Shown here in pieces: positions 20,637-64,000 of a DNA stretch of 64,000 bases. Positions within the stretch are counted from its first letter, which is position 1, and every line of letters begins with the position of its first letter. Below the pieces are notes generated by a model. It ran no database searches and was not told the DNA's origin. It saw nothing but the letters and a program-made list of their open reading frames with translations. The translations under genes and the position numbers were made by a program. The stretch comes from Candidatus Aenigmatarchaeota archaeon (GTDB taxonomy: Archaea; Aenigmatarchaeota; Aenigmatarchaeia; QMZP01; QMZT01): positions 37,262-101,261 of the forward strand of contig JBGPQP010000002.1 in NCBI GenBank assembly GCA_041489155.1, given 5' to 3'.

Positions 20637-21590
20637 CTAATGCGGCATGAAACTGGAGAACATGCTGTTTATGACGAAATTCGCCCCGAAGAACACAATA
20701 AGGGCGATTATCATGAAGATGGGCACGTATTTTATCCCGCCCTTCTCCTTGCCCGTTTCTATCAGGCCGATTATCAGGCCGGAGAAGAAAGTGGTTATGA
20801 TGATCGAGACGACCGAGAAGGCCATCAGGAAATCGGGCGAAATTGATATGCCGCCCTTGAACATCGGGACGCCCTTCGACATGACCTCGCTGCTCACCAC
20901 GCTGGAGCCGGTGAGGGAGGTAAGCGTGGTTATGAGATAAAGCGACAGCGCATAGAGGACGGGCGCGCCCATCACGCCGGAGAAGACAATGAATATCCCG
21001 TACATTATGATGTTGGCCTTTATCTCCTTCTTTATCGCCTGCTTCCTGCGGATGTCGACTGCGTTCTCATCCAGCAGAGAAACGAGCTGGCCGCCGAACT
21101 TCGAGCCCTCGTTTATCAGGTTTATCGCGCGCTGGAGGATGTCCGATTTTATGTAGCGCGGGATTTCGTTCAGGCCCTCGGCAAGCGATTTGCCTGTCAG
21201 GATTTCCTTGCCCGACTTCTTTATCGCCTCCGCGAGCGGGCCGAACTCGCTGCGTGCGCTCAGTAACAAAGCCTTGCTGGGTATGTAGCCTGCGCGCATG
21301 TTGGCTGCCATAAGCTCTAGCGCATCCGGCAGGACATTCTCGACGAAAGTCTTTCTCTTCTCGACGGCAAGCGTGAGGTAGGCGTTGAACATCAGGAAAG
21401 CGCCCATGAAAACGCCTATGAAGATGTAAATGGCGTATGTTCTTACAACCACCGCCAGAACCGCTGCGAGTATGAGGCTTATAATGAACGATTTGTTTAT
21501 GTAGGACTCGCTGGTGGTGGTCATGCCGGCGAGCAGCAATTTCTCTCTTATGTGCTCCCGGTAATTCTGGGGGAAAAACCTGTATATCAT
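20637..21590 (-). CDS. type II secretion system F-domain membrane protein (TadC/FlaJ-like platform, half-size)
   Basis: One T2SSF repeat: LPDALELMAANMRAGYIPSKALL...GPLAEAIKK...LTGKSLAEGL...GGQLVSLLDE, flanked by TM helices. Confidence 0.8.
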   Translation of the reverse strand: MIYRFFPQNYREHIREKLLLAGMTTTSESYINKSFIISLILAAVLAVVVRTYAIYIFIGVFMGAFLMFNAYLTLAVEKRKTFVENVLPDALELMAANMRAGYIPSKALLLSARSEFGPLAEAIKKSGKEILTGKSLAEGLNEIPRYIKSDILQRAINLINEGSKFGGQLVSLLDENAVDIRRKQAIKKEIKANIIMYGIFIVFSGVMGAPVLYALSLYLITTLTSLTGSSVVSSEVMSKGVPMFKGGISISPDFLMAFSVVSIIITTFFSGLIIGLIETGKEKGGIKYVPIFMIIALIVFFGANFVINSMFSSFMPH

Positions 21591-21600
21591 ATCAATCCCT

Positions 21601-22494
21601 TTAATCGATGCCTACCGGCCTCCTTGATTTTATAAGGCCTATGAACATGAACTGGAAAAGGACGAGGACGCCTAGTAGCCCGGCCAGCACGATTTGAAGG
21701 TTGAACTTCAGGCCGGTGAAGGATGCGAGGACGAGGAGGAAGGTGATGCCCAGCGTCGGGAATATCACGGCGAAAAGCATGTACATGAGGGCGAGAGGGT
21801 TCAGCTGCGCGCCGTATTTTTTGATAGCGACTCTCTGCTCGACCGCCAGGTTTTCTACTATCTCTTTCATCGTGTGTCCGATGTCGGCGCCGGATTTGAG
21901 CGCGTTTATGATCTGCCACATGACGCGGCGGAAGAAGAACGAAGGCGTCTCTCTCGTTATTTTTTCCAGCGCTTCCGCCTCGGACTTGCCCGTGTTTATC
22001 TCGTTTACCACGCGCCTCATCTCCTTTGAAAGCGTCCCGTAGTCGCCCCTCGCTATCGAGACGAGCGTGTCGTAAAGCGGCACGCCTGACCTTACCTGGA
22101 CGAGGATGTGATGCAGAACGTACGGGAGATTCTTCTCTATGTCGCCTACCTTCTTCTGCGCGGAAAGCTTCGGGTAGAAGGAAAGGAACATGAACGTCCC
22201 CGTCCCTATCGCCAGGCCGGCGAACGTCGCCACCGTCAGCGCCCTCTGCATCTCTATCCTGGCAACGAGCGTTATCAGGAACACGAGGCCGAACAGCAGC
22301 AGGAAGTAGAACATGAACGCGAACAGGGCGATGGACATCCAGCGGCGCGGCGAGATTTCGAAGCCTGACTGCTCGAGGTCAAATTCAAGGGAAGGGAACA
22401 TTTTTGACAGGTTCTCCCCCAAGCCCAGAAAGTGCTCTGTTATCCCCCTTACTTTTTCATATGGCAGGGGCAAGAATGGAATTTTGTTTTTCAC
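21601..22494 (-). CDS. type II secretion system F-domain membrane protein (TadB-like platform, half-size)
   Basis: One T2SSF repeat: NLPYVLHHILVQVRSGVPLYDTLVSIARGDYG.LSKEMRRVVNEINTGKSEAEALEK, with TM helices on both sides. Confidence 0.8.
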   Translation of the reverse strand: MKNKIPFLPLPYEKVRGITEHFLGLGENLSKMFPSLEFDLEQSGFEISPRRWMSIALFAFMFYFLLLFGLVFLITLVARIEMQRALTVATFAGLAIGTGTFMFLSFYPKLSAQKKVGDIEKNLPYVLHHILVQVRSGVPLYDTLVSIARGDYGTLSKEMRRVVNEINTGKSEAEALEKITRETPSFFFRRVMWQIINALKSGADIGHTMKEIVENLAVEQRVAIKKYGAQLNPLALMYMLFAVIFPTLGITFLLVLASFTGLKFNLQIVLAGLLGVLVLFQFMFIGLIKSRRPVGID

Positions 22495-48427: not shown

Positions 48428-49354
48428 ATGAAAGAGAAATACTACATCCTAAGAACCGGGAAAGCAAACGAAATCTCGAATGCGAAGGTTTTTGAAAGAC
48501 CCGAGGTCATGAAATCCATGACCAGCCCTCTAGGCATCAGAATACTGCAAGCGCTTTCTTCGCCGAAATGCCCGATGGATATAGCCAGAAAACTCGGCGA
48601 GCATGAGCAGAAAATCTATTATTATATAAACAAGTTCAGGAAACACGGCCTTATAGAAGAAATCAGAACGGAAAAAAGGAAAGGGACGCTGGCTAAATTC
48701 TACCAGATAACCAGCAACGCATTCATAGTCAGAATAGGCGAAACCAGATGGGAAAAATTTGACTCTTCCTCGCCACACCAGAAAAAATCGCTCGAACCTT
48801 TCATAAAGAATGGGAAAATTGATTTTACCATAATTATCGGCTCCCCTGATCCTCACGGCCCATGGAAGGAGCGCGCGCTGGATTCGCCGGCAGCGATTGA
48901 CCTCGCCCTTTTCCTGGGATCTTTTGCAAAGGAAAAGATTTCGCCCAATTACAAATTGGATATAGAGATTCGCGAAAAGGATCTGAAAAACAATCTGATA
49001 CTGATAGGAGGGCCCGTCGTCAACATGGTAACCAAAAGGCTGAACAAATCAATGCCCGTGAACTTCGATTTCAAGGGCAGGGACATAATGTCCGGCATTT
49101 CAAAAAACGTCTACAAGGACGACCAGTTCGGCATCATAAACCTGATCGAAAACCCATGGAACCGCTCGAAAAAGATTCTGGTTTTCGCTGGCAAGCGCTT
49201 TCCAGGGACGAGAGCGGCGATACTTGCCTTCATGAGCGATCCAGAGCGTATACTCAGAGGCAACCGCTTCGACCATTCGAAAATATCGAAGGTCGTCAGA
49301 GGATATGACATGGACGGCGACGGCATCATAGACAAGGCGGAGATACTGGAATAA
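48428..49354 (+). CDS. ArsR-like winged-helix regulator fused to an uncharacterised C-terminal domain
   Basis: MTSPLGIRILQALSSPKCPMDIARKLGEHEQKIYYYINKFRKHGLIEE (wHTH). C-terminal LILIGGPVVN... and a DMDGDGIIDKAE Ca-binding-like loop. Confidence 0.6.
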   Translation: MKEKYYILRTGKANEISNAKVFERPEVMKSMTSPLGIRILQALSSPKCPMDIARKLGEHEQKIYYYINKFRKHGLIEEIRTEKRKGTLAKFYQITSNAFIVRIGETRWEKFDSSSPHQKKSLEPFIKNGKIDFTIIIGSPDPHGPWKERALDSPAAIDLALFLGSFAKEKISPNYKLDIEIREKDLKNNLILIGGPVVNMVTKRLNKSMPVNFDFKGRDIMSGISKNVYKDDQFGIINLIENPWNRSKKILVFAGKRFPGTRAAILAFMSDPERILRGNRFDHSKISKVVRGYDMDGDGIIDKAEILE

Positions 49355-50533: not shown

Positions 50534-51259
50534 ATGAAAGAAGTGCTGAAAGAGCTTGGCCTCACGAACAACGAGATTGAGGTGTATCTAACGCTCCTGA
50601 GAAAGGGGTCGATATCGGTCAATGAGATTGCGCAGCGATCAGGCCTTCACAGGCAGGCCGTTTACGACGCGCTGGAGCGGCTTCTCGAGAAAGGGTTCGT
50701 CAGCTTCGTCATAAAAAACGGCAAGAAATATTTCCAAGGAATTGCTCCCGGAAAAATACTGGGCTACCTCAAGGAAAGGGAAGATAGATTCAGGTCGATA
50801 TTGCCTGAACTGATAGGTATGACCAAACTCCCGATGGAAGACACGACGGTCGAGGTTTTCAAGGGCAGAAGAATCGTAAAAACAATCTACAGGGACATAA
50901 TAAATGAATTCCAGAAAAAACCCGGGGAAATCTTTATTTCAGGGGTCGATGAGAGGAGATTTGTGGATGAGGATAAAATCGCCCTGTACCAGCACTTGAA
51001 GAGGCTTCAAAAATTAGATTGCTCCGAGAGGATACTGGTAAAGGAAGGTGATACTTATTTTGTCAAAGGTACCCAGACTGAATACAGATGGATTCCTAAG
51101 GAATCGTTTAACCCGACTCCGATTTATGTATATGGCAACAAGCTCACAATAGTTATCTGGGGCAGTCCAAATTACGCGATAATAATCGAGAATAGAAATC
51201 TAGCCGATTCGTACAGGAAGCAGTTCAATCTGCTTTGGAAGATTTCCAAAAGGGTGTGA
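50534..51259 (+). CDS. trmB: TrmB-family transcriptional regulator
   Basis: LGLTNNEIEVYLTLLRKGSISVNEIAQRSGLHRQAVYDALERLLEKGFV is the TrmB wHTH. Confidence 0.85.
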   Translation: MKEVLKELGLTNNEIEVYLTLLRKGSISVNEIAQRSGLHRQAVYDALERLLEKGFVSFVIKNGKKYFQGIAPGKILGYLKEREDRFRSILPELIGMTKLPMEDTTVEVFKGRRIVKTIYRDIINEFQKKPGEIFISGVDERRFVDEDKIALYQHLKRLQKLDCSERILVKEGDTYFVKGTQTEYRWIPKESFNPTPIYVYGNKLTIVIWGSPNYAIIIENRNLADSYRKQFNLLWKISKRV

Positions 51260-51538: not shown

Positions 51539-52732
51539 TTATTCGAAAATCATTGCTCTCGGCTGTTTCGAGCGCTCTGTCTCCCGCTCCTCGAACATTC
51601 CGATTGCCTGATCTATATCGGTTTTCATCTTCTCAAAGCGCTGCTCGTAGTTATTGACGAAGTCGTTTATGAACTGCGTCATGTGGGCGCGGAATACCTT
51701 TATCTCCTCTGACTTCTTGGCGAGGTCCGACGAGGTTTTCGCCTCGCCCAGCGAGAGACGTGCAATTATTTTGTCGCTTGCCTCGTTAAGCTTTGCGACG
51801 AGATTCTCCTTGAAGATCTTGTTTTCCTCGGCGAATTTCGCGAAATTCTCCTCGCTGATTTTCTTAAGGTTTTCAAGGCCGAGTTCTACGTTCTTCAGCC
51901 TGTGGTCGAAATAGGAATCCTTTTCCTTCATGGAATCCAAGCGCCCTGCAACGTTCTTGAACTCGTTCATGAGCGAGCCGAAGTCCCTCTTGAGATTCTC
52001 CTTTTTCACGCTGAACATGTCGAGCTTGCCTGCAACGCTCATTTCGAACTCCTCTATTTTTGCTTTCTGCTCGTCAGCGAATTTCTCGAAGTCCTTTACG
52101 TCCTTCGTCAGCCTAGCTTCAAGGGCTTTTGCCTTCGCGACCTCTGACATCAGCTCTTTTTCGACTAAATTCATCCTCTCGTTTATTCCGCTTTTCAATG
52201 CATCCTGCCTTCCCGAGAGCTCTGAAATGGATTTGTTCAGTAAATTCACATCATTACAAAGCTTAGCGATGTTTTTGGCGTATTCCTCGTTTCTTTCGAT
52301 GGTTTTTCGTATGCTTTCCTTCAAAGCCTGTGTATCTTTGAGGTTTTTGTCCATCGTGTCCTTTAACTGAGAAGAAAGGGTGGCGCTTATCGCTTTCGAC
52401 CTTTCAGTAAGCTGTGCATTTATCTCCCTTCCTATGAGCTTTATGTCCTCCTCTGACTTATTTTTCAGGGCAATCTGCTTGCTCTCGACAGAAGCGATTG
52501 CCTTTTCAAGCGAGCTCATGAAAGAGCGGATATTCGTAAGCGTGTCGTCTTTTCTCTCGAGCTTTTCCTGCGCGATTTGCAGTTCGCCCTTGAGAAGCCC
52601 GATTTCCTGCGAGTTTTTGTCGCCCGTTTTTTTCACCTGTTCAATTATGTAGTCGTGTTTCTGGCGAAGCTCTTCTTTCTCTTTCTTTATCTCGTTTATT
52701 CTTTCCTTTATCCTGTCAATTTTTTCGCTCAT
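51539..52732 (-). CDS. coiled-coil protein (397 aa), last gene of the MinD/coiled-coil operon
   Basis: K/E/L-rich and poor in Pro/Cys/Trp, with heptad-like hydrophobic spacing throughout. ATGA overlap with the upstream gene (52729-52732). Confidence 0.6.
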   Translation of the reverse strand: MSEKIDRIKERINEIKKEKEELRQKHDYIIEQVKKTGDKNSQEIGLLKGELQIAQEKLERKDDTLTNIRSFMSSLEKAIASVESKQIALKNKSEEDIKLIGREINAQLTERSKAISATLSSQLKDTMDKNLKDTQALKESIRKTIERNEEYAKNIAKLCNDVNLLNKSISELSGRQDALKSGINERMNLVEKELMSEVAKAKALEARLTKDVKDFEKFADEQKAKIEEFEMSVAGKLDMFSVKKENLKRDFGSLMNEFKNVAGRLDSMKEKDSYFDHRLKNVELGLENLKKISEENFAKFAEENKIFKENLVAKLNEASDKIIARLSLGEAKTSSDLAKKSEEIKVFRAHMTQFINDFVNNYEQRFEKMKTDIDQAIGMFEERETERSKQPRAMIFE

Positions 52733-55700
52733 GATTCCACGTGCCTGAGAAGTTCTTCAAGCTCCTCTTCCTTCTCCTTTTTGGTTTTCGTGATGCTCTC
52801 AGCAACAGAATCGATTTTCTTTTCCGTTTCTCCAATTCTGATATTAAGCACGGACTCCTGTGTTTTCATGCGCTTTTCAAGATCCTTCATGAAGTCCCTC
52901 AGCTTAAGGTCAACATTGTCTTCTACTGCCCTGTTTATCGATTTAACATTCTCTATGACTAGGGTTCTCGCCTTTTTGACGGTGTAAACATCATCCCTTA
53001 CGGCTTCGATCTTGCCGCCAAGCCTTTCAATCTTCTCGCTCAACTTTTCAAGAACCATTTGCAGCTCTACCACCTCGGTCCTCAATGATTTTTTGGTTTC
53101 AGAGATGTCGCCTTTTTTGTCCTTTGAGAACGCCAGAAGTTTGTTGTCGATAAGCGAGGTGCTTTCCTTCATAACTTCGTTCTTTATGGAATCCTTTATA
53201 TCGTAAAACTTCTTGGTCTCCCCATCCAGGTCATTGAGCCTCCTGCCGATCTCGCCCTTGACTGCCATGAGTTCCTTGAGGGATTTGTTGGTTTCGATCC
53301 ATCTCTCTCTTTCGCCTGCTTGGAATTTGACCTTGAGGCTTTCGATGAGCGCATCGGTGTCTTTCTTTGCCTTTTCTGTTTTTTCGAGTCTTCTTGCCTC
53401 GCTCGTGTCGAAGTCCTTCTTGATGGACGAGAGTCTCTTTTCAAACTCTGCCTTCGCGAAGGAAAGGTCCGACTTTATCATGTCAAGATTATCCGAGATG
53501 TCTGAGATGGTCGCCTTGACCCTTTGTTCAACGTCAGCCTTCAGCTTTTCAACGACCTTGTCCACCTCTCCGGTCTTTTTGCCGGTGGCCTTGTCCACGT
53601 CGCTCGTAAGCTTCCCGATCGTTTTCCCGAGCTCAACCTTGAATTGTGAGAGGTTCGCTTCGACCTCCCTTACTCTCATGTCAACGGTTTTCATAAGCTC
53701 GTTTATCTTGGTGTCGGTGTCGTCCCTTGCGTTTTCGAATCTCTCCCCTATTCCTTCCACGATGTCCTTTACTCTTTCATTCACGCCCGAAAGGCTTTCC
53801 TTGTAAATCTCCTTCTTAAGCTCTTTCCTCATTTCGGATAATTCGGCTATTTTTATGTCGATTTGCTTCAGCTTCTCGTCTATCTTGCCTTTCTCCGCAA
53901 TGAATTCCTTGAGGGTCTTGTCGACCTCTGTGCGCTTCTGGACTTCTGTTTTCTGTATCTCCTTTTTGAAGTCGCTTATGGCAATATTTATTTCCCTTTC
54001 TTTTGCCTTGGCGTCGGCTGACACAGCGCTGACCATCGTTTCGAAGTCCCTGGATTTCTCCTTTATTATAGAGTCGAATTTCTGGCTCAGATTAACAGTG
54101 AAACTGTCAACCTCCTTTCTAAGGGAAGTGGTTTCGGCTGCAATCTGCTTTATCTGTGTGCTGGTGTTGGCTGCAAGTGCGGAAAATCTGCCATCGATGT
54201 CTTTTTGGAGAGTTTTTGAAAGCAGGTCTGCATTCTTGTCCATAGCTAGGTCGCGCTTTTCGAACTCCTTCCTAAGGGTTTCCATTTTCTTTTCGATATC
54301 TGCCTTTATGGAGGCGGTAATGCCCTGGAAGCTTGCGTTGAGATCGTCAACGTCGCTTTCCATGGCAGAAATCTTGTCAACCATGCTGTCCTCGACGACT
54401 TCGAACTTCTTCTCCAGTTCGTCGATTATCATCTTAAGCTTTTCCTGCACTCCGGCCAGGCTTTCCTTGGTTATCTGCTTGCGCAGGGTTTCGGAAGCAT
54501 GAGAGAACTTTTCCAGTTCTGCTGAAACCTCGTTTATCTTCTCGTCGACCTGGCCTTTCACGGCCATGAATTCCTTTATTATCCCGCTGATCTCCGCCTT
54601 CCTCTTGGTTTCGCCTGTTTCGGCGGATCTGTTAAGCATATCGATTGATTTCGCAAGGTTCGCTTTCAGGCCATCGATGTCCTCGTTTATGCCCGTTATC
54701 TGTTCGTAAAGCTTTTCAGCCTCTGCTTCAAGCCTCTTGCCGAGGGATGCGTTTATGCGGGTAAGGGACGCATCAAGCTTCTTCTCTCTTCTTTCCTCCC
54801 CTGCCTCGACCTTCCTGTTTATGGTCGCTACCAGTTTTTCGACTTCTTCCTTGGTGGTTATGAGGTCGGTTCTCAGCGAGCCGAGGTTCTTGTCCCAGAC
54901 ATTAGCTGAATCAAGGACCTGCTTGTCTACCTTGTCCTTCATGCCGGCAAGGACAGCGTCAAATTCCTTTGATTTCGAAACCATGAAATCGCGCGTGTCC
55001 ACCTTTGCTTTGCCCAGCGTTTTCTCAAGTTCGACCCTGAATCTGGTCAGCTCGCTTTCCGCGTCCATTATCTTCTTGCCAAGGTTCGCCTTGAGCTCTT
55101 CGACATCGCCGCTTACCTCGGCAACATGAGCATATATGTCGTCAGTCGTGTTTTCCAGCTTCTTGTTCAGCGCGCTGTTTAGCCTCGCCATTTCACTGTC
55201 TATTCTTTTCTCCCTTCTTTCCTCGCCTATCTCGACCTTCCTGTTTATGGTCGCTATCAGCTTTTCGACATCGCTTTTAAGGGCAACGATTTCGGTTCTG
55301 AGGGAGCCGAGCTTCTTGTCCCACTCGCTCGCTGACGCCTGAAGCTGGGCATTCATTTTCTCTTTCAGTTCAGCCAGAAGGGTGTCGAATTCCTTGGACT
55401 TGGTTGCGACAAAGTCGCGCGTGTCCACTTTGGCCTTGCTTAGCGTTTTCTCAAGCTCGACCCTGAACCTGTTAAGATGCTCCTCGGCCACAATAACCTT
55501 TTTGTCGACGTCCGCGGCAAGGCTGCTGAACTTGTCTTCCAGATTGGCAGAAAGCGTTTCAAGCGCCTGGTTCATCTCCTTCGTTTTCTTTACGTCAAGC
55601 CTCTCGACGATTCCTTCCATAGATGCGATGGCTTTTGAGAAATCGACCTTGGTTTTGTCGAGCTCCTCTGTCACGTGCGCCAGAGCCTCGCCCAGCTCCT

Positions 55701-56334
55701 TCGCTTTCTTTATGTCCACCTTTTCCATTTCGTTGCGCAAGGCGTTCGCTTGGCGCTCAAATTCCTTCTTGAAGTTGTCTATCGAATTCCCTACGCCTAT
55801 TTTCAGGACGCTGAACTGGTCCTCAATCTTCCTGACGTCCTCGCCGAATTTCGCCTTTATCTCCTCTACCTTCTCGGCGAGCTCTTCGGAGCCGAACGTC
55901 TGGACGGTGGAGATGCGCTTTGCCATGTCTGCGACGGCCTTCTTGAATTCGCCCATGGTCGCCATCATGGCTGCCTGCTTCTCGCTGTTCTTGACCATCT
56001 CGTTCTTGAAATTACCGACTATGACGTTGAAATCATCAACTTTTTTGAGGGCGGAATTTATTGAAACGTCGTATTCCTTTATCTTATGCAACCTCACCTC
56101 GAACTCGTCGAGCTTCGCCCTTACAGGCTTTATGTTCTGGTCGACGAAGTCAATAAGACGCCTCCCTGACTCCTCGTAAAGGATGCCTGCCTGCTTGAGC
56201 TTCTCGATGAGGTACCTGTTCCTCTCTTCAAGATAATTCTTCTCGTTCTCGAGTTCCGTAAGAAGGCGCTTCTTCTCTTGGTTATCCTTCTTGAGATTCC
56301 TCAGGCCTTCCTCGAGTTCCTTGAGTTCGGTCAT
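52729..56334 (-). CDS. giant coiled-coil protein (1201 aa) with internal tandem repeats
   Basis: Continuous helical, K/E/D/L-rich sequence with no Walker A (so not SMC/Rad50). A 142-aa tandem duplication and a thrice-repeated module ..LKEF(I/M)A(V/E)KG.(I/V)DEK... TAATG overlap with the upstream gene. Confidence 0.65.
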   Translation of the reverse strand: MTELKELEEGLRNLKKDNQEKKRLLTELENEKNYLEERNRYLIEKLKQAGILYEESGRRLIDFVDQNIKPVRAKLDEFEVRLHKIKEYDVSINSALKKVDDFNVIVGNFKNEMVKNSEKQAAMMATMGEFKKAVADMAKRISTVQTFGSEELAEKVEEIKAKFGEDVRKIEDQFSVLKIGVGNSIDNFKKEFERQANALRNEMEKVDIKKAKELGEALAHVTEELDKTKVDFSKAIASMEGIVERLDVKKTKEMNQALETLSANLEDKFSSLAADVDKKVIVAEEHLNRFRVELEKTLSKAKVDTRDFVATKSKEFDTLLAELKEKMNAQLQASASEWDKKLGSLRTEIVALKSDVEKLIATINRKVEIGEERREKRIDSEMARLNSALNKKLENTTDDIYAHVAEVSGDVEELKANLGKKIMDAESELTRFRVELEKTLGKAKVDTRDFMVSKSKEFDAVLAGMKDKVDKQVLDSANVWDKNLGSLRTDLITTKEEVEKLVATINRKVEAGEERREKKLDASLTRINASLGKRLEAEAEKLYEQITGINEDIDGLKANLAKSIDMLNRSAETGETKRKAEISGIIKEFMAVKGQVDEKINEVSAELEKFSHASETLRKQITKESLAGVQEKLKMIIDELEKKFEVVEDSMVDKISAMESDVDDLNASFQGITASIKADIEKKMETLRKEFEKRDLAMDKNADLLSKTLQKDIDGRFSALAANTSTQIKQIAAETTSLRKEVDSFTVNLSQKFDSIIKEKSRDFETMVSAVSADAKAKEREINIAISDFKKEIQKTEVQKRTEVDKTLKEFIAEKGKIDEKLKQIDIKIAELSEMRKELKKEIYKESLSGVNERVKDIVEGIGERFENARDDTDTKINELMKTVDMRVREVEANLSQFKVELGKTIGKLTSDVDKATGKKTGEVDKVVEKLKADVEQRVKATISDISDNLDMIKSDLSFAKAEFEKRLSSIKKDFDTSEARRLEKTEKAKKDTDALIESLKVKFQAGERERWIETNKSLKELMAVKGEIGRRLNDLDGETKKFYDIKDSIKNEVMKESTSLIDNKLLAFSKDKKGDISETKKSLRTEVVELQMVLEKLSEKIERLGGKIEAVRDDVYTVKKARTLVIENVKSINRAVEDNVDLKLRDFMKDLEKRMKTQESVLNIRIGETEKKIDSVAESITKTKKEKEEELEELLRHVES
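54637..55488 (-). repeat. in-frame tandem duplication, 2 x 426 bp (142 aa) inside the 1201-aa gene
   Basis: Residues ~283-424 and ~425-566 align (..RFRVELEKTL(S/G)KAKVDTRDF.. / ..ATINRKVE(I/A)GEERREK..). DNA strings such as CTCGACCTTCCTGTTTATGGTCGCTA recur at 54805 and 55231. Confidence 0.8.
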
Positions 56335-58247
56335 TAACTCTTCAACTCTTTAAGAAGTATATTTATTTTGTCCCTCTGCCTGTGGGACTCTTCCTCGAAT
56401 TTCCTTTTGTCAGCAAGTGTCTGTTTTACAATAGTGTCAAATTCCTTTGACACCTCGTTCAGCCTGCTCTCCAACACCAGGAACCTCTTTTCGCTCTCCT
56501 TGTTTCTCAGCTCGTTGGCCTTGACCCATTCCCACACGGAAGCGATAGATTTCTCGACTTCGGCGATTTCCTTCAGCGATTCCCTCATCTGGGTCTGGCC
56601 TTCCTTGAGCTTCTCGGTTCTCGTGTCAAGCTTGGATATGTCGTTTTTCAGAAGATTGAGCGTCGGGTTGACGACGTTCTGGAACTGGACGAATTCGGCT
56701 TCGGAATCCTCCAGCCTGCCGCTGACGTCTTTAGTGAACTTCGCGACATCGGCCCTTATGTTCTTAAGGTCCGGACCGGCGATGTCTGTGAAAAGGCCTT
56801 TCGCCTTCTCCTCGAGCTCGTTCTGGAATTCGGCCTGGTTAACCTTGATTTTCTCTGTTCTAGTGCCCATCTTCTCAAGCTCTTCTTTTATCATGGAAAG
56901 CGTCGGGTTGACGACGTTCTGGAACTGGACGAACTTGGAAACCATGTCGTTGACCTTCGCCCTTGCCACGGCGAGGTTCTTCTCCGTCCTGTCCTCCAGC
57001 TCGAGGAACTTCGACTCTGTCATGTCGTCGAAGAACTCCTTTGTTTTGGTCTCTATCTTGCCGGTGAAGGCCTTGTCGAACTTCAGTATCTGGTCGTTAA
57101 GCAGATCGGTCCTCTTCTTGAGAAGCGCCTCGAGCCTGTTGGCCATTGCGATGAGATTCGCTTCCTTCTCCTTTATCCTGTCGTATATCTTGTCCTTCTC
57201 CGTCTGCAGGTCGGAGATGTAATCCCCCATCTTGTAAAGCGTCTTTATCTCGCCCTTGAAGTAGTTCACCTCGTTGAAAAGCGTTTTTATGTTTTCGCTC
57301 AGTTTCTCCACGTCGCTTCTGACGCCTTTTATGTCGTTGAAGACGGGCGTCATCTCCTTGCCCATCTTCTTCTCTATTTCGTTGGGTATTATCTCGCCGG
57401 TTATCTCGTCGGCTGAAAATATGAACTTCTTGAGCTTCTCGACGTTGCCCGGGCTCATGCGCTCTATGAGGCCTTCAAGCTTTTCCTCGAAAGTCGGGAA
57501 GCGTTCAAGAATTTTTATCTGCTCCTTTATCCTCGTGATTCTAGTGTCCATTTCATCCTTTAGCTCGCGGATGCTCTTCTCCTGGTCCTTCAGCGAGCTC
57601 TTTATCTCGAGCATGTCGTTTTTAATGTCCACCCGGCCGCCGAAGACGGCTAGGCCTTTCGAAACCTCCTCCTCCTTCCTCGGCTGCTCCATGCGCTCGA
57701 CCATCTTCCTTATCTCTTCCTGCAGGTCGGCAATCTTCTTCGAGGTGTCCGCCTGGACCTGGTCCACCATGTCACGCAGCTTGCTACTCGCCTTTTCCGG
57801 CTTCTCGGCTTTGGCGACCTCCTCTATCTTGGTGCTCATGGCTGTGAGCGCTGCCTGGACATTCTTCATCTGCGATTGCATCTGTTCGCCCATCTTGCTC
57901 TCCGCGGCCCTGACCCTGGAATCAACATCAACAGAACGTGCTTCCTTCTCCTGTTCGTTCGCTTCGCTTTCATCGCCAGAAGTGGATACCTTCTCTATTA
58001 TTTCGGCGAGGCTCTTGGATTTTTCCCGTTCCCTCTCCAGCTCATCCTTGAGGGATTCGACGTCCCCTTCAGAAGCCTTGGCCTTTTTCTTTGCCTTCCC
58101 TTCTTCGCCCTTTTCCTTTTCTTCCGGTTTCGTGGCATCAAAATTCTCTATGTCTTTTATCATGTCTTCGGTCGACTCCTCAGCTTCGTCGACGCCCTTG
58201 CCGAGATCGCCCATTTTCTCAAATTCGCCTTTTTTCTTCGCCATCAA
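56334..58247 (-). CDS. coiled-coil protein (637 aa) with acidic/basic low-complexity N-terminus
   Basis: K/E-rich leader, then a long helical region. Internal 80-aa repeat marked by FVQFQNVVNPTL (twice). Confidence 0.65.
   Translation of the reverse strand: MMAKKKGEFEKMGDLGKGVDEAEESTEDMIKDIENFDATKPEEKEKGEEGKAKKKAKASEGDVESLKDELEREREKSKSLAEIIEKVSTSGDESEANEQEKEARSVDVDSRVRAAESKMGEQMQSQMKNVQAALTAMSTKIEEVAKAEKPEKASSKLRDMVDQVQADTSKKIADLQEEIRKMVERMEQPRKEEEVSKGLAVFGGRVDIKNDMLEIKSSLKDQEKSIRELKDEMDTRITRIKEQIKILERFPTFEEKLEGLIERMSPGNVEKLKKFIFSADEITGEIIPNEIEKKMGKEMTPVFNDIKGVRSDVEKLSENIKTLFNEVNYFKGEIKTLYKMGDYISDLQTEKDKIYDRIKEKEANLIAMANRLEALLKKRTDLLNDQILKFDKAFTGKIETKTKEFFDDMTESKFLELEDRTEKNLAVARAKVNDMVSKFVQFQNVVNPTLSMIKEELEKMGTRTEKIKVNQAEFQNELEEKAKGLFTDIAGPDLKNIRADVAKFTKDVSGRLEDSEAEFVQFQNVVNPTLNLLKNDISKLDTRTEKLKEGQTQMRESLKEIAEVEKSIASVWEWVKANELRNKESEKRFLVLESRLNEVSKEFDTIVKQTLADKRKFEEESHRQRDKINILLKELKS
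56598..56933 (-). repeat. in-frame 240-bp repeat pair with a 35-nt identical core
   Basis: AGCGTCGGGTTGACGACGTTCTGGAACTGGACGAA occurs identically at 56659-56693 and 56899-56933 (plus strand), while the flanking repeat sequence has diverged. Confidence 0.8.
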
Positions 58248-58259
58248 GACACCCCAACC

Positions 58260-58526
58260 CTAACCAAGTTCTTCAATAAGCTTTTCAACGACTTTCTCAT
58301 TCCTTTCTATCCGCTTTTCCAAGTCTGAAATTCTGCCGCCAATGTCCCTGAACCTCATCACGGTTTCTTTGCCTTTGTCCTCATCGAGATCCATCAAATC
58401 CATCTTAAGATTCCGAGGTATAAAATCGCTTTTACCCTTGCCCTCTGTATATTTTAATCTATATAACTTGTATAATAAAAAGCAAATCACCGCAAGCAGC
58501 GCTATTATCGCCAACTCGTACATCAT
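58260..58526 (-). CDS. small single-pass membrane protein with helical cytoplasmic tail (88 aa)
   Basis: MMYELAIIALLAVICFLLYKLY TM, then ..RISDLEKRIERNEKVVEKLIEEL. It lies 12 nt upstream of the 637-aa gene and 28 nt downstream of minD. Confidence 0.5.
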   Translation of the reverse strand: MMYELAIIALLAVICFLLYKLYRLKYTEGKGKSDFIPRNLKMDLMDLDEDKGKETVMRFRDIGGRISDLEKRIERNEKVVEKLIEELG

Positions 58527-58554
58527 ATAAATAATTTTGGCAGGACCCTATAAA

Positions 58555-59328
58555 TTACTTCTTAATCCCTAATAGTTTCATAAAGTTGGAAAGCAGGCTT
58601 TCGGGCTTCTTTTCCTCCTCGCCCAGAATCTTGGCAGCGAGCCTCAGGAACTCCCTGCTGGAGGGGGAATTCGGGGAGAAAAGCACGACAGGCATCTTGA
58701 GCGCAAGGCTGCGCAAAACGTTCTTGTCCATGGGTATGCTTGAAATGACGGATAGCTCTATGAGCTCCTCGACTTCTTTCGGCGTCAGCTCGTATTTCTC
58801 ATTGCCCACCATGTTGAGCACTACGCCCAGAGGCTTGACGCCCATTTCATTCGCCACCTGGTGGCATTTGATTATGTCCATCGTTGACGGGACGAAAGGC
58901 GTGTTTACGAATATGACCTCGTCCGACGCCCGCACTGTCGCCATCGCCTCCCTTCCAAGGCCGGGCGCGGCGTCAAGCAAAACGATGTCCGCCTTCCCGA
59001 AGAGTTTTTTAATCACGTTCTTCAGTCTCGCAATGTCGACGCCCTTCAGATCGCTGTAGGAAAGCGACGCCGGTATGACACGCAGGCCGCTTATGTGGTA
59101 CTGGTATATCGCGTCTTCTATCTTCGCCTCCCCTGTAAGGACCTGATTAAGCGTAACGGGCGTGTAATACATACCAAGGTAAAGACCCAGATGCGAAGTC
59201 GATACGTTGCAGTCGATGACTATGACTTCCTTTTTGAATTTCTGCGCCATGACAGAGCCGAGGTTAGCGACAAGCGTGGTTTTTCCGACGCCGCCCTTCC
59301 CCGAGATTATCCCTATTACCCTCGTCAT
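58555..59328 (-). CDS. minD: MinD/ParA-family ATPase (archaeal MinD-like)
   Basis: Deviant Walker A IISGKGGVGKTTLVANLG, Walker B VLLDAAPG, and a C-terminal amphipathic LLSNFMKLLGIKK resembling a membrane-targeting helix. Confidence 0.9.
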   Translation of the reverse strand: MTRVIGIISGKGGVGKTTLVANLGSVMAQKFKKEVIVIDCNVSTSHLGLYLGMYYTPVTLNQVLTGEAKIEDAIYQYHISGLRVIPASLSYSDLKGVDIARLKNVIKKLFGKADIVLLDAAPGLGREAMATVRASDEVIFVNTPFVPSTMDIIKCHQVANEMGVKPLGVVLNMVGNEKYELTPKEVEELIELSVISSIPMDKNVLRSLALKMPVVLFSPNSPSSREFLRLAAKILGEEEKKPESLLSNFMKLLGIKK

Positions 59329-59362
59329 ACCCTACCATATGTTGTTTTGGAGTTTTATATTT

Positions 59363-60034
59363 CTACCATTTAAGCGCGCAAAGTATCCTCGACAGCTCGT
59401 TTTCGTCCTTCACGAGCACTGGGAAATCTACCACGTTCCTCAGCTTCGAGTCCGCCATGCGCATGTAATTCAGCAAATCCCTCTCAGCCGAGAGGGAGAT
59501 CATGGTCGCTATCATGCGCAAAACAACGTCCGCTTCGTATTTCCTGCAGAATAGCCTGAGGTTCGAAAACAGGACGTAAAGGAAAACGTCCGCGAATATG
59601 TGCGGGCCGTATTTCCCGAGAACCTCCTTGTCGTTTTTGTAAAGTATTTTCAGGTTCTTTTTGTCGAATAGCACGGCATGGTATTTTTCCATGAATTTCT
59701 GCACCGCCGGCCATCTCGTGCGGAGCAGGAAATCAGGAACCCAGTTTTCCGCGGTTTCCTTGGCAAAATACCTCTCTCGTACGTAAGCGGGAATCCATGC
59801 GTACTCGGCTCTCAGGCGTTTGCCTTCTTTAGTTATGTAGTTTTCCCTTATCATGCAACGGAAGAGGGGACTTTTCAGGCCGACCTCGTTGTGATAAAGG
59901 TAGTTGGTCTTGACGTCCCACGTGGTCTGTATCTCAAAAAGCGAAATCCCTCTGTCGCCGCCAGCCGAGTTTATCCATATCAGCCAGAAGTTCTTGTAAT
60001 CCGTGATCTTCTCCTTGATGCGCATGGTTCTCAC
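59363..60034 (-). CDS. hypothetical protein (223 aa), first gene of the MinD/coiled-coil operon
   Basis: Clean ORF 34 nt upstream of minD. W/Y/F/R-rich globular sequence with no recognised motif. A TATA-like GTATATTTATATAA lies just upstream (60044-60057, minus strand). Confidence 0.5.
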   Translation of the reverse strand: MRTMRIKEKITDYKNFWLIWINSAGGDRGISLFEIQTTWDVKTNYLYHNEVGLKSPLFRCMIRENYITKEGKRLRAEYAWIPAYVRERYFAKETAENWVPDFLLRTRWPAVQKFMEKYHAVLFDKKNLKILYKNDKEVLGKYGPHIFADVFLYVLFSNLRLFCRKYEADVVLRMIATMISLSAERDLLNYMRMADSKLRNVVDFPVLVKDENELSRILCALKW

Positions 60035-60177
60035 TTATATAAATATACTATTCTGAAGGGGCATATAAAATACCACCCCCCGTCCTGGAACATTAACCGT
60101 TTGTTAAACCGAAGAAAAAAATTGTGGTAATTTTATATGAATATACTATTTATTCCATGAGAACCGACAGGCGCTTT

Positions 60178-63100
60178 CTATTTGACAGCGGACTTTATCT
60201 GCTCGATTTTCGCGAGCTTTTCCTCGTTCCTAGTTTTAAGGCTCATGTACGCGTTTTCTGTTATGAGGCCCTCTTTAAACTGCCTCTCGAGGAGATTAAG
60301 GACTCTTCTGATGTTCATTTCCTCCTTTTCAAGCGTCTCCCTTTCCTTCATCCTTTCGACGACGACAGTCGTCTTCATCGCGCCCTGGGCTCCGCCGGGG
60401 GCCTGTAGCCTGAAAATCCTGTCGAAAACGCCCCTCATCTTCCTGACTAAGACCAGCAATATCGCTATTACCACGACCAGAACGAGGAGTATCGCTATCA
60501 GCCACGGCGGGAAGATGGTTTCAATCAGTATCTGGACAAACGGCGCCTGGGAAAGGAGGTAAATCGCCTTTTCCAGCGCACTCCACCCAGAATGGACCTC
60601 GCTCAGCGAATCATCGTACATCTTTTTCTCCAGATAATCTTCAGCCAGCCTTATGTGCTCTTTTATCTGGTCGATGTAAGGCAGAACTTCCTTCGTGTCC
60701 TTGCCTGCCTTTTTGGCGTTTTCGACATCCACCTGGAATTCCTGGAATGCCTTCTTTAGCCTGTCTATCTCCCATCTTATGAGCTGGGCCCTGCTCGAGA
60801 AAACGGTGAGTGTAAAGCTCTTCTCATCCCTTGTGACATTCGCGTCCGCTATTATCTGGCCAATGTACTCCTTTGCTTCAGCGGTCGAGGGGATTTTAAG
60901 GGTTAGGGTGAAGATAGAACTGTTGCCTACGGCGAGTTCTGGTATGATTTTTGGCGAGATGTCCTGTATCCAAGGCGAAGGGATGCCTGTTACGCGAAGG
61001 ATTACGTTGTAAAGCTTCGAGCCGCCTGTGTTCTTGACTTCAACAGTCGGGTATTTAACCACGTCCATCTCCATTCCCAGCTCAGGAGAATATTTTATTA
61101 TCTCAATTTTTGCAGGCTGCGAGGGAGCGGCTCCTGCGCCTCCGGCTGCGCCGCCACCGCCTGGCGACGGCGGCTGGGGAGGAGCGCCGCCTTCAACGAC
61201 AAAAAATGTCCGTTCAGCTGTAGCCGGTTCTATGTTAGGATCATACGTTACCTTAACGTTCAGGGTATACTGACCAAGAGGTTGGAATGAGTATACGAAC
61301 AAACTTCTCAAAAGCGTCCTGTTAGCATGTGCATTCACTTGGATGGAAGCGTTGCCATAATCCCAAGTTTGGTTCGCTCCTGATATCCAGTATTCGACTT
61401 TAACATCCTGCTGGGATATATCGCCCCTGTTCTCGATTAGCATCTCGAAATCGAGATAATCATTTCTCGGGACTTCATTTTCTATCGATGTAACCTCAAC
61501 ATCGTAAGGGCCACCTTTTGCTATACTGAAAGAATATACCGTATCACTTGCATGTTTCCCGTGGCGTGTAACACTCAAGATAGCCCGATAAGTTCCGCTT
61601 GCTGTTGTATTTTCACTTAGTATTTCTGATGGATAACTATAGGAGCCAGGATATATTTCTGTGAAATCGCTTTTACTTAAATGTCCCCATGGGCGGGTAA
61701 CTTCCAGCCATCCGTATGGAGTTTGATATTCAATAGTGAGGTTTATCGAGTCTGGTTCAACCGATATGCCATGATCTTTAATCTCAACACCAATTTGCAT
61801 ACTTCGCGAAATATAAAAGTATTGACCTTCATCTATACCAATTTTGGCTTCTAGTTCACCGGCCTCTTCGACCTCAAACGTATAAGAACTTGTGTTATAG
61901 ATTATTGTGTTAACACTAGTTTCATAGTAAGACGAATTCGCCGAAAAGGTGTAATTTCCGAGTATGGCATTTGGTGGTATGTTGTAAAGACTGCCCGCAT
62001 CACCATTTGAATTTGTAACAAAATATTTGTCAACGTCATCTATCAAGTAATCAGCATTTCTTCCATATGGGTCTGTGAGTGTTAGATTGACATTAGCTCC
62101 ACCCAAAGGCGTGACAACGGCATCACGCGACTTTATCCATATTACTTTTCCAAGTTGTCCTTGATACGCATATTTGTCAGTATCCAAGTCGACGAACAGC
62201 TTGTAATATATGTAAAAGTAGCTGGTGTTGACGGTATTGTTCTTTCCCTGGTTATCCAGAGCAAAGACGGTAATGTTGTAATAGCCTTTATTGGTCGTGT
62301 TGCCCCACGCCACTCCTTGGTAAGGTTCGTCACTATAAACGTAATATCTGGCCCTCCATCTTGACGTGCCCCCTGTTTTCGACCCGCCGTAGAAAAACAT
62401 TACCATTGTGTCGTTCGAGCCGTCCGGCCTCCTGACCGTAACCGTGACGTTGCCGTCATTTACTCCTGCACCTCCCTGATCCGTAACATTCGCGTATACC
62501 CACACATATTCAGTCTGCTCAGTCATATTGGGCGAAATCTGGACAGATATACCGGGCTTAATGTAAGGATTTAGTATAACCTGTAGAATCACATAATCCG
62601 GGTTTGAGCCGCTCTCCACGGCGTTGATTGTGTAGTTGGCGTAATAGAATTTTATGGTCTGGTTAGTCACGTTGTAATAAATTGATAAAACCAGCGACTG
62701 CCCCTTGTTCAGAAGTAAGCCATTTACACTGGTCCACGTGTGATTGAACTGGCTTGATACATTAGCCACAGGCGTTATGGTGAAATTTATCTGGGTGTTG
62801 CCGGTGTTGTTTATGAACACGTCGCAGGCCGTCCCCTCTTCGGGTGATTCGACCTTTTCGCAGTAGGTTGTGTTGGTAGTCCATGTCCTGTTTGTCGGGA
62901 TTTCGATTGTGAGATTTATCTCTTTGTAGCCGTCATTCGATGTCGTTACGTTGAGTATGCCGGTGTAGATGCCGGGTGCCTGGCCATATGCAACGGAAAG
63001 GTTTATCTTGACGCCCTGCGGATATTCGCCGCCAAGGCTAGGGACGTTAGGAGGCATGATTTCGAAATAGAAGCTTGAGCTGAAGTTATAAACGGTGAAG

Positions 63101-64000
63101 ATTATGTTCTCGACGGGATCGTTACCGGTCGAGTTGAGTGACAACGTTCCTATTTCCTTCTCTGTACCATGCGTAACATTGTTTGAAATGGCGTTTTGAA
63201 GTATGGTGAAGTTGATCCGGGAAAGTACTGTTATGTTTATCAGGGTCGAGTTAAAATTCGTGCCTTTTTCCGGGTCCTCCCACTGCACGCTCAGGTTAGC
63301 GGTGTAGTTGCCCGAATGTGTCTGGGCCAGTATGGTTATAAGGAATGACGTATTGCAGCTCTCCCACTTGGGTACGTTGCCGCAATAAAAGGACGATACG
63401 TTTGAAGTTATACCTGCAGAGGAAAAATTCAAATTGATGCTCACGTTGTAGGCAGTCGAATTGCCTATGTTTACAGTGCTGACGAAAACAGGAAAGGACT
63501 GATTCTGGTACCATGTGACATTGCCGGCAGTGAAATTGTACACGTCGCTATCGATGGTTATGTTGGTACCTGAAACCGAAACTGTTAGGTTGATAGTTTT
63601 GAAGCCGTCATTCGCCGTCGTTACATTTATTGTCCCGTTGTATTCGCCGGGCGGGGTGTCAAGAGTTGCGTTGACCCACAGCTGGACCATCTGCGAATTG
63701 CCCCACCACAGAGCAGGTATGCTGGACGGGACCAAGCTGAAGGTGAAATTGCCGGAGAAGCCCTGAATAGTCATGTTAAGTGTATACAGGGGTTCGTTGC
63801 CTATCGAGTATACCGTGAAATTCTTTACGTTCCTCAGGGGCTTGTCTGCCGCTATTATGCCCAAGACGAAGGTGTCAGAAACGTTAAGCTGCGGGTTTGG
63901 CAGGACCGTCACGTTAATGAGCGTGCTGTTGTAGCCTGGCACGGATGCGTTTGAATTCCTCCAGGCTGCGCTTATGTTTACAGAATAGTTGCCTGCAGGC
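60178..64000 (-). CDS. giant N-glycosylation-sequon-rich surface protein with C-terminal TM anchor and cytoplasmic helical tail (5' end outside window)
   Basis: The frame stays open to base 64000 (upstream codons read ..PAGNYSVNISAAWRNSNAS before the track's GTG). Repeated beta-rich modules, a P/G/A linker PPQPPSPGGGGAAGGAGAAPSQP, a TM PPWLIAILLVLVVVIAILLVLV, and an ~85-aa K/E-rich tail. Confidence 0.7.
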   Translation of the reverse strand, partial: PAGNYSVNISAAWRNSNASVPGYNSTLINVTVLPNPQLNVSDTFVLGIIAADKPLRNVKNFTVYSIGNEPLYTLNMTIQGFSGNFTFSLVPSSIPALWWGNSQMVQLWVNATLDTPPGEYNGTINVTTANDGFKTINLTVSVSGTNITIDSDVYNFTAGNVTWYQNQSFPVFVSTVNIGNSTAYNVSINLNFSSAGITSNVSSFYCGNVPKWESCNTSFLITILAQTHSGNYTANLSVQWEDPEKGTNFNSTLINITVLSRINFTILQNAISNNVTHGTEKEIGTLSLNSTGNDPVENIIFTVYNFSSSFYFEIMPPNVPSLGGEYPQGVKINLSVAYGQAPGIYTGILNVTTSNDGYKEINLTIEIPTNRTWTTNTTYCEKVESPEEGTACDVFINNTGNTQINFTITPVANVSSQFNHTWTSVNGLLLNKGQSLVLSIYYNVTNQTIKFYYANYTINAVESGSNPDYVILQVILNPYIKPGISVQISPNMTEQTEYVWVYANVTDQGGAGVNDGNVTVTVRRPDGSNDTMVMFFYGGSKTGGTSRWRARYYVYSDEPYQGVAWGNTTNKGYYNITVFALDNQGKNNTVNTSYFYIYYKLFVDLDTDKYAYQGQLGKVIWIKSRDAVVTPLGGANVNLTLTDPYGRNADYLIDDVDKYFVTNSNGDAGSLYNIPPNAILGNYTFSANSSYYETSVNTIIYNTSSYTFEVEEAGELEAKIGIDEGQYFYISRSMQIGVEIKDHGISVEPDSINLTIEYQTPYGWLEVTRPWGHLSKSDFTEIYPGSYSYPSEILSENTTASGTYRAILSVTRHGKHASDTVYSFSIAKGGPYDVEVTSIENEVPRNDYLDFEMLIENRGDISQQDVKVEYWISGANQTWDYGNASIQVNAHANRTLLRSLFVYSFQPLGQYTLNVKVTYDPNIEPATAERTFFVVEGGAPPQPPSPGGGGAAGGAGAAPSQPAKIEIIKYSPELGMEMDVVKYPTVEVKNTGGSKLYNVILRVTGIPSPWIQDISPKIIPELAVGNSSIFTLTLKIPSTAEAKEYIGQIIADANVTRDEKSFTLTVFSSRAQLIRWEIDRLKKAFQEFQVDVENAKKAGKDTKEVLPYIDQIKEHIRLAEDYLEKKMYDDSLSEVHSGWSALEKAIYLLSQAPFVQILIETIFPPWLIAILLVLVVVIAILLVLVRKMRGVFDRIFRLQAPGGAQGAMKTTVVVERMKERETLEKEEMNIRRVLNLLERQFKEGLITENAYMSLKTRNEEKLAKIEQIKSAVK

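Follow-up and report, generated by a model that had tools for sequence, protein, structure and literature searches.

A conserved MinD, membrane-anchor and coiled-coil gene module beside giant surface-protein genes of Aenigmarchaeota, a candidate envelope scaffold

Introduction

A ParA/MinD-family ATPase working with a coiled-coil scaffold is a recurrent solution to the problem of spatial order in bacteria. In Streptomyces, ParA works with Scy, alongside FilP and DivIVA, in the tip-organising centre. The scaffold Scy consists of CC7, a canonical coil of 63 amino acids (aa), followed by CC51, a domain of 1226 aa in which 51 residues make 14 turns (3.64 residues per turn) and to which ParA binds directly (PMC3718342). 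In the MinD-MinJ-DivIVA system of Bacillus subtilis, a membrane protein bridges a MinD with a membrane helix and the coiled-coil scaffold that marks a cellular site, and in Myxococcus PomZ works with PomX and PomY, two large coiled-coil-rich partners that form one large cluster. MinD4 and MinD2 of the archaeon Haloferax volcanii position envelope machines (the archaellum and chemosensory arrays) and not the divisome, as summarised in PMC13228585; no archaeal partnership of a ParA/MinD ATPase with a coiled-coil scaffold has been described. The subject of this study is a gene module in a 64,000-nucleotide stretch of contig JBGPQP010000002.1 from a Candidatus Aenigmatarchaeota archaeon, the whole of which is called the window below. 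In this module a MinD gene lies between the gene of an orphan protein, p223, and genes for a small transmembrane (TM) protein and three large coiled-coil proteins, next to a surface-protein gene. Its conservation suggests a lineage-specific, membrane-anchored coiled-coil scaffold that is positioned by MinD and coupled to giant envelope proteins, a reading that is held tentatively and falls just short of probable. A literature search found no description of such a module, as a sequence-only reading of the window had supposed; coverage was thin for subscription journals, so the absence is not proof. The genes of the module are listed in the order of their transcription.

60178..64000, minus strand: predicted C-terminal part (~1270 aa) of a surface protein, an open reading frame (ORF) open to the window edge
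59363..60025, minus strand: p223, a 220-aa orphan protein and constant partner of MinD
58555..59328, minus strand: MinD, an archaeal MinD ATPase with a deviant Walker A motif and an amphipathic C-terminal tail
58260..58526, minus strand: TM anchor, a predicted single-pass membrane protein of 88 aa
56334..58244, minus strand: cc637, the first coiled-coil protein, 636 aa
52729..56334, minus strand: cc1201, the second coiled-coil protein
51539..52732, minus strand: cc397, the third coiled-coil protein, heptad-like and more variable than the other two

The parallel with ParA and Scy lies in a long coiled-coil protein that works with (Scy) or is encoded beside (cc1201) an ATPase of the ParA/MinD family. 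Unlike in Streptomyces, the ATPase is a MinD of presumed membrane type and not a nucleoid-binding ParA, and besides the orphan p223 the module has its own TM anchor and two more coiled-coil proteins. Its members also share a locus, whereas scy and parA are not known to stand in one operon. As in the Bacillus subtilis system, a membrane-helix MinD would be joined through a membrane protein to a coiled-coil scaffold; unlike MinJ, however, the 88-aa anchor has only one TM segment, and Pfam/NCBIfam scans gave no match to PDZ and no signature of DivIVA, MinJ, MinC or MinE. The coiled-coil proteins measure 400-1200 aa, in contrast to the 164 aa of DivIVA. With PomX/PomY/PomZ the module shares the combination of a ParA/MinD ATPase and large coiled-coil-rich partners, and the conserved basic N-termini of cc637 and p223 recall the N-terminal basic peptide by which PomX is reported to activate its ATPase (PMC7993993). 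The matrix of PomZ is the nucleoid, whereas the MinD considered here has a membrane-type tail, and neither sequence similarity to PomXYZ nor a link to FtsZ was seen. Haloferax MinD4 and MinD2, which belong to another phylum, have no described p223, TM-anchor or giant coiled-coil partners, and the cargo of the module would, by comparison, be giant surface-protein and ATPase assemblies; since MinD4 and MinD2 place envelope machines, they nevertheless provide a precedent for an envelope role of the module MinD. DipABC was also considered as a relative and set aside, being GTPase-based and without MinD, hence unrelated (PMC13228585).

Results

Conservation of the gene module

Every named homolog of p223, cc637 and the neighbouring genes came from a metagenome-assembled genome (MAG) of Candidatus Aenigmarchaeota/Aenigmatarchaeota, which are DPANN archaea, tiny and of a symbiotic type. 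A profile scan of species-representative genomes yielded 53 loci, which were analysed on both strands by ORF calling and jackhmmer, one locus on a complete chromosome being checked against independent public gene calls. MinD is encoded directly downstream of p223 at 43 of 50 loci. Among these 43, a cc637-like gene is adjacent in 37, the contig ends first in five and the module is reduced in one; coiled-coil genes thus adjoin MinD in 37 of the 38 assessable loci (species-level Aenigmarchaeota genomes). The jackhmmer labels may drift among the coiled-coil families, and large ORFs with at least 27% Lys, Glu and Asp (K/E/D) at these positions are independent of the labels. Two architectures were found. 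At 24 loci the genes for the surface protein, p223, MinD, a TM protein of ~90 aa and three coiled-coil proteins follow each other in the same direction, and at 13 loci, including one on a complete chromosome, transcription of the TM and coiled-coil genes diverges from that of p223-MinD. Absence of a conserved linkage to MinD, which the sequence-only reading had named as an outcome that would speak against it, was not observed, the linkage being present in 37 of 38 assessable genomes and in two orientations. All 26 loci counted as co-directional have the surface-protein gene directly upstream of p223, and in four of the 13 divergent loci the surface-protein operon is convergent to MinD. Context look-ups for distant p223 homologs (48-55% identity) returned the same gene order, continuing upstream. 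The flank opposite the surface-protein side differs in every genome and the surface-protein side is conserved. Because the set stays together through inversion while its surroundings change, functional coupling, beyond inherited gene order, is indicated.

Across the same genomes, sequence identity amounts to ~70% for MinD, ~50% for p223, ~30% for the TM anchor and 21-26% for the coiled-coil proteins, and the latter are fast-evolving positional orthologs. Judged by the homologs recovered, all families partnering MinD are lineage-restricted and the module is limited to one DPANN phylum.

In the window, the six minus-strand ORFs lie where they had been placed from the sequence alone (59363-60034, 58555-59328, 58260-58526, 56334-58247, 52729-56334 and 51539-52732), and the reported overlaps of 1 nt and 4 nt and gaps of 12-34 nt are borne out. 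The genes for cc637 and cc1201 share the stop/start overlap TAATG (1 nt, at 56334), those for cc1201 and cc397 overlap in ATGA (4 nt, 52729-52732), and the gaps measure 34 nt between p223 and MinD, 28 nt between MinD and the TM anchor and 12 nt between the TM anchor and cc637. Two starts were revised from public gene calls and family alignments, namely that of p223 to the ATG at 60025 (220 aa, not 223) and that of cc637 to the ATG at 58244 (636 aa). The six genes form one unit here, as proposed earlier, but the conserved block runs past 60034 to the surface-protein gene, and in 13 genomes the arrangement is divergent.

MinD and the membrane anchor

On its match to TIGR01969 (minD_arch; 238.8 bits, above the curated cutoff of 201.75), the protein encoded in the window is a bona fide archaeal MinD, and its best PDB sequence matches are archaeal MinDs (1HYQ, Archaeoglobus MinD-1, E=1e-48; 1ION; 1G3Q). 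The deviant Walker A motif, noted from the sequence as GKGGVGKT, reads SGKGGVGKTT in the window MinD and in 42 of the 42 orthologs listed. The C-terminal amphipathic helix that had also been noted is matched by a conserved pattern, in which an amphipathic stretch is followed by basic residues, and this tail is kept in ~40 module-linked orthologs; most orthologs have the hydrophobic/basic pattern, for example PESLLSNFMKLLGIKK and PEGFFFNILKFFKKK. The tail has the form of a membrane-targeting sequence, by which MinD would presumably bind the membrane.

The TM anchor consists of an N-terminal TM segment, basic residues and a short C-terminal coiled coil ending in KLIEELG, and 24 orthologs have the same layout and conserved tail. 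Its C-terminus is predicted to be cytoplasmic because basic residues follow the TM segment. In co-directional loci the gene separates MinD from cc637, in some divergent loci it precedes cc637, and its product has no family match in the Pfam/NCBIfam scans. The clade formed by loci L020, L022 and L024 has no called ~90-aa TM gene and a gap of ~270 nt between MinD and cc637, and the MinD of this clade has a C-terminal extension of ~20 aa.

The three coiled-coil proteins

The composition of cc637, cc1201 and cc397 agrees with their first description as K/E/D-rich and Pro/Cys/Trp-poor, with 34-36% K+E+D, 0-1.6% Pro, 0-2 Trp residues and either no Cys (cc637 and cc1201) or a single one (cc397). Heptad-like spacing, which had been attributed to all three, holds for cc637 and cc397, in which the hydrophobic period is 3.5-3.56, but not for the rod of cc1201 (residues 150-1010), which has a period of ~3.64 and hardly any power at 3.5. 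Residues 1-150 of cc1201 are in heptad register, with autocorrelation peaks at lags 7, 14, 21 and 28. From residue 150 to 1010 the local period is 3.63-3.67, and the autocorrelation reaches +0.31 to +0.35 at lags 11, 18, 29, 40, 51 and 62 (standard deviation of shuffled sequences 0.037), exceeding that at lags 22, 33, 44 and 55. The rod, ~860 aa long, is of the mixed heptad/hendecad type with ~3.64 residues per turn. Windows with a period of 3.60-3.70 account for 42% in the second-position orthologs versus 12-14% in the first- and third-position families.

By autocorrelation, cc1201 fits the layout of Scy, a short heptad N-terminal coil (~150 aa at period 3.5) being followed by a long rod (~860 aa at ~3.64, lags 11, 18, 29, 40 and 51), and the analogy with Scy/FilP drawn in the sequence-only reading is strengthened by it. 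The large taxonomic distance between an archaeal and an actinobacterial protein makes convergence with Scy more likely; the Pfam/NCBIfam scans returned no Scy/FilP family, no Scy or FilP sequence or profile having been compared.

Internal repeats were found by a windowed BLOSUM diagonal scan, and BLAST self-comparison detects none of them. In cc1201 they comprise a 142-aa tandem duplication and three copies of a unit of ~215 aa, and in cc637 a duplication of 80 aa. The modular repeat build accounts for the range of lengths among cc1201 orthologs (643-1913 aa), of which the N-terminal 45 aa are conserved in both architectures. Positional orthologs of cc397 measure 246-1131 aa and likewise have a conserved N-terminal segment. 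Homologs of cc637 form 37 clusters, all from Aenigmarchaeota, and its positional orthologs match with E=1e-59 to 2e-24 at ~25% identity. From an alignment of 21 sequences, AlphaFold2 (AF2) models cc637 as almost wholly helical, with helices of up to 178 residues, a predicted local distance difference test (pLDDT) score of 57 and ~60 disordered residues at the N-terminus; such a low-confidence model of long helices is the expected look of an obligate oligomeric coiled coil modelled as a monomer. Within the region modelled as disordered, cc637 orthologs have a basic N-terminal cluster, KK-K-G, followed by the motifs EFEKMGDLxKGV and EDIIKEIExFDATK.

No confident family for the three large proteins was obtained from Pfam, NCBIfam, PADLOC, PHROGs or PDB sequences, and their standing outside the named families, SMC/Rad50 included, agrees with the earlier reading. 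Placement in a known family, the other outcome that this reading had named as contrary to it, thus did not arise in these searches. Weak matches concern the coiled-coil arms of SMC, Rad50, ASRP, LmuB and JetC, the tails of ZorA, and Apolipoprotein, Baculo_PEP_C and DUF1664. The sole match above a cutoff, that of cc1201 to Baculo_PEP_C (PF04513; 58.3 bits, cutoff 38), was rejected as homology, the reversed sequence scoring 64.4 bits and a fully shuffled copy giving no matches, and the Apolipoprotein match (55 bits) was rejected likewise, the reversed sequence scoring 68.5 bits. Since the reversed sequence scores as well, these matches reflect amphipathic periodicity and composition and not homology. 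The match of cc1201 to ZorA tail profiles (50 bits) arises through a shared non-heptad amphipathic periodicity; identity with ZorA of Zorya was rejected, as PADLOC matches the tail only and there is no TM segment, MotA/ExbB domain or ZorB. Identity with SMC/Rad50/SbcC was dismissed as well, the scores being 15-30 bits against cutoffs of 567-1087 (300-1087 for the SMC, Rad50 and ASRP models taken together) and confined to the coiled-coil arms. The sequences of cc637, cc1201 and cc397 contain no P-loop and no Walker A/B head, and neither a zinc hook (CxxC) nor an SMC_hinge match. The public names of the large proteins, 'DNA repair exonuclease SbcCD ATPase subunit' and 'chromosome segregation ATPase', are annotation artefacts.

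The giant surface-protein neighbourhood

The ORF upstream of p223 (1254 aa in the window) is 99.9% identical to residues 739-1992 of the protein encoded at the related locus L001, and on this evidence the window contains only the C-terminal part of a ~1992-aa surface protein, the rest lying beyond its edge. The surface protein is sequon-rich, has Ig-like/NPCBM_assoc domains (NPCBM_assoc 44 bits) and ends in a TM segment followed by a cytoplasmic helical tail of ~90 aa. The remaining genes of the neighbourhood were read from related loci, outside the window, among them L001 (1-9151), L003, L005 and L007. There the ~1992-aa gene is preceded by a gene for a K/E-rich cytoplasmic protein of 490-740 aa (526 aa at L001, 1590-3170), and further upstream by one for a surface protein of 2522-6351 aa, the cytoplasmic end of which, after the TM segment, is a HerA/FtsK-type ATPase. 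In L001, L003, L005 and L007 this domain scores 34-44 bits for DUF87 (cutoff 23.2) and 30-37 bits for HerA_C (cutoff 22), with intact Walker A (AAGATGSGKS) and Walker B (LLIYDEVHRL) motifs. No description of a fusion of a surface protein with a HerA/FtsK ATPase was found in the literature. Relatives of the HerA-type domain with 47-50% identity occur in Woesearchaeota, Pacearchaeota and Nanoarchaeota, where giant Ig-like proteins are again its fusion partners or neighbours.

The motifs …GLITENAY… and …GFISKEAYEK… are shared by the 526-aa K/E-rich protein and the surface-protein tail (about 60178-60440); their SHOCT/GvpG-like character is an unsupported hint, with sub-threshold scores (~14 bits, cutoff 24). 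Upstream of the reduced module at locus L041 a 141-aa remnant-like piece resembles the C-terminus of the surface protein.

p223 and its upstream region

The p223 family is confined to Aenigmarchaeota (125+ clusters), with only 33 representative clusters among 1.84 billion proteins, and p223 is the tightest and most constant partner of MinD. The protein begins with a conserved basic tail, M-[RK]-x-K-x-K. The AF2 model (pLDDT 88) has an N-terminal domain of the order helix-helix-helix-strand-strand, which may be winged-helix-like, and a helical C-terminal domain that includes a helix of 45 residues. Foldseek against PDB gave no significant match, the top ranks being winged helix-turn-helix (wHTH) regulators of the PadR, IclR and GntR types (E>=0.6), and a Pfam scan of 35 family members gave no matches, HTH families included. 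The most distant homologs (L052-L058, ~40% identity) have no adjacent MinD; some of the MAGs concerned are labelled Bathyarchaeota or Nanohalarchaeota, and at L054 and L056-L058 the p223 homolog adjoins a membrane protein of ~280 aa encoded on the opposite strand.

The intergenic region between p223 and the surface-protein gene contains a pair of 16-mers.

60133..60148, minus strand: distal 16-mer, TAGTATATTCATATAA, one of two exact copies in the window
60051..60132, minus strand: conserved intergenic block between both 16-mers, AAYAAAC followed by a pyrimidine/G-rich mini-hairpin
60035..60050, minus strand: proximal 16-mer, TAGTATATTTATATAA, possible promoter or operator that stops 10 nt short of the p223 ATG

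The consensus TAGTATATT(T/C)ATATAA has exactly two exact copies in the 64-kb window, where 0.4 would be expected even when three mismatches are allowed. The copies are spaced by 96-98 nt in seven species, and the 16-mer (up to two mismatches) is confined to the p223 upstream region in the related loci, which span up to 20 kb. The one exception is an additional copy in the MinD-cc637 gap of L024 (L024 11612), which belongs to the clade without a TM gene. The 16-mer contains a TATA-like core and, for this reason, is possibly a plain duplicated promoter; the pair may be a duplicated promoter, may serve p223 as an operator or centromere-like site, or may drive a small RNA. Rfam gave no match on the block between the 16-mers, and a structured RNA there is doubtful, given a hairpin of only 3-5 bp with a variable loop and loss of register in the MAFFT alignment.

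The remaining window

Inside the three coiled-coil genes, the plus strand (51654-58328) contains many antisense ORFs of 60-330 aa, which are by-products of the K/E-rich codon composition and not genes. They can mislead gene callers, and greedy ORF picking was misled at L026 and L041. Just downstream of the module, the plus strand encodes a 308-aa protein with an S_layer_C-like domain (48428-49354) and a TrmB-family regulator (50534-51259); this flank differs in other genomes. The remainder of the window is ordinary chromosome, with genes for split RNA polymerase subunits, FBP aldolase/phosphatase, GlnA, PyrG, PurF and GuaA.

On the minus strand, 23198-25540 encodes a geranylgeranyl reductase-like FAD protein of 780 aa with an inserted LAGLIDADG domain, which is probably an intein. 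A 170-nt Rfam tRNA match at 12491-12660 (minus strand), without an ARAGORN call, is probably an intron-containing tRNA and is adjoined by genes for tRNA-Asp and 5S rRNA (minus strand, 12701-12775 and 12893-13006). A DUF87/AAA ATPase (minus strand, 18681-19982) is a second HerA-like ATPase, encoded in the window; with the gene for a T2SSF-family membrane protein (minus strand, 20637-21590) and a second ORF at 21601-22494 (minus strand), the region 18681-22494 looks like a type-IV-pilus or archaellum-like assembly locus.

Discussion

The polar, shape or attachment scaffold first suggested for this module is a role that we infer from its genes, and the following order of events is proposed. ATP-bound MinD dimers would associate with the membrane through the C-terminal helix. 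ParA/MinD ATPase partners such as ParB, MinE, PomX and McdB typically act via N-terminal basic peptides, and because p223 and cc637 have conserved peptides of this kind, p223 and/or the basic N-terminal peptide of cc637 may be the contacts of MinD, serving in recruitment or ATPase stimulation. The 88-aa protein would fasten the coiled-coil proteins to the membrane on its cytoplasmic side, where these proteins, with a Scy-like cc1201 among them, would build an extended sub-membrane scaffold, the location and number of which would be set by the ATP cycle of MinD. The scaffold would then bring order to the giant surface proteins from within the cell, acting on their cytoplasmic tails and ATPase domains; a zone of contact with another (host) cell or of attachment is the most plausible site. 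The narrower proposal, that the module is the cytoplasmic organiser of a DPANN host-contact apparatus, in which MinD and p223 would determine the position and number of a membrane-anchored, Scy-like platform clustering giant adhesins and the HerA/FtsK-fused surface protein where the host is met, is doubtful at present.

Several points weigh against a scaffold coupled to the envelope proteins. The coupling is deduced from gene neighbourhood within one phylum, of which, to our knowledge, no member is in culture, and in some divergent loci the ~2000-aa surface gene is not adjacent. At L041 (CP070804.1, a complete chromosome of 742 kb) the module is reduced to p223 and MinD, followed by K/E-rich genes of 110 aa and 365 aa. 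MinD, p223 and the coiled-coil trio were not found beside the HerA-type genes of Woesearchaeota, Pacearchaeota and Nanoarchaeota; since the block is not beside it in other phyla, the adhesin-ATPase unit seems to be DPANN-wide and the block of MinD, p223, anchor and coiled-coil proteins an Aenigmarchaeota-specific addition, and because other DPANN phyla do without the coiled-coil scaffold, the adhesin-ATPase machinery does not require it. The putative winged helix of p223 is read from AF2 topology alone. Finally, a C-terminal docking motif (…LLKELxG) that by eye seemed to be shared by the TM anchor, cc637 and cc1201 was abandoned, as a hidden Markov model of the anchor tail matched no C-terminus of a coiled-coil protein.

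Among the alternatives, placement of the division site survives best, although it is rather unlikely. In such an analogue of PomXYZ or MinD-MinJ-DivIVA, membrane-anchored coiled coils would mark midcell or the poles and MinD would direct or exclude the FtsZ/SepF ring. The component logic would be the same, in that coiled-coil scaffolds and a small TM adaptor accompany a ParA/MinD ATPase, and PomX and PomY are themselves reported to be coiled-coil ATPase-activating proteins that act via an N-terminal peptide (PMC7993993, PMC13170346). DipABC, the one archaeal system known to position the divisome, was found among DPANN in Nanohalarchaeota only, so Aenigmarchaeota are without a known positioning system (PMC13228585). 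The conserved neighbourhood, however, holds giant surface-protein genes and no FtsZ, SepF or Cdv genes, signatures of DivIVA, MinJ, MinC and MinE did not appear in the scans mentioned above, and in Haloferax all four MinDs act outside division (PMC13228585).

A role in anchoring or segregating DNA, in which p223 would bind the paired 16-mers, MinD would be a ParA-type motor and the coiled coils an anchoring matrix, as in ParA-Scy, PopZ-ParB or RacA-DivIVA, is quite improbable. Repeats beside an operon are typical of ParG, SegB and AspA-type systems. The 16-mer pair, spaced by 96-98 nt, is restricted to the p223 upstream region save for L024, and could be such a set; its TATA-like core, on the other hand, is what a merely duplicated promoter would also have. 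The predicted winged-helix topology of the p223 N-terminal domain and the wHTH regulators in the top Foldseek ranks would suit a DNA-binding protein, but no Foldseek match reaches significance (E>=0.6) and none of the 35 family members matched an HTH family. Scy does bind ParA (PMC3718342), whereas the tail of the module MinD is of the membrane-targeting type. As an autoregulator only, p223 could be compatible with every other model of the module.

That the large proteins share no function with MinD and are generic structural, stress or SMC/Rad50/SbcC-like proteins lying beside it, as the public SbcCD ATPase subunit and chromosome segregation ATPase names and the weak SMC, Rad50 and ASRP matches might suggest, is most improbable and largely refuted here by matches far below the cutoffs and limited to coiled-coil arms, by the lack of a Walker A/B head, hinge and zinc hook with 0-1 Cys, by the adjacency with p223-MinD in 37 of 38 assessable genomes, which survives inversion, and by the 1-nt and 4-nt start/stop overlaps at the coiled-coil gene junctions.

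The MinD-positioned, membrane-anchored scaffold therefore remains the tentatively preferred reading of a module that is phylum-wide, consists of orphan proteins save MinD and is genetically tied to the best candidates for host interaction. With it, misleading public annotations of the large proteins ('SbcCD ATPase subunit', 'chromosome segregation ATPase') are corrected. If the proposed link to host contact is true, no 'attachment organelle' scaffold of DPANN archaea would have been defined genetically before this module, and giant surface-protein assemblies would be a new class of cargo for ParA/MinD ATPases. Little is known of DPANN cell biology outside a few cultured lineages, and the module supplies concrete gene targets for studying envelope organisation, attachment or division in ultra-small archaea.

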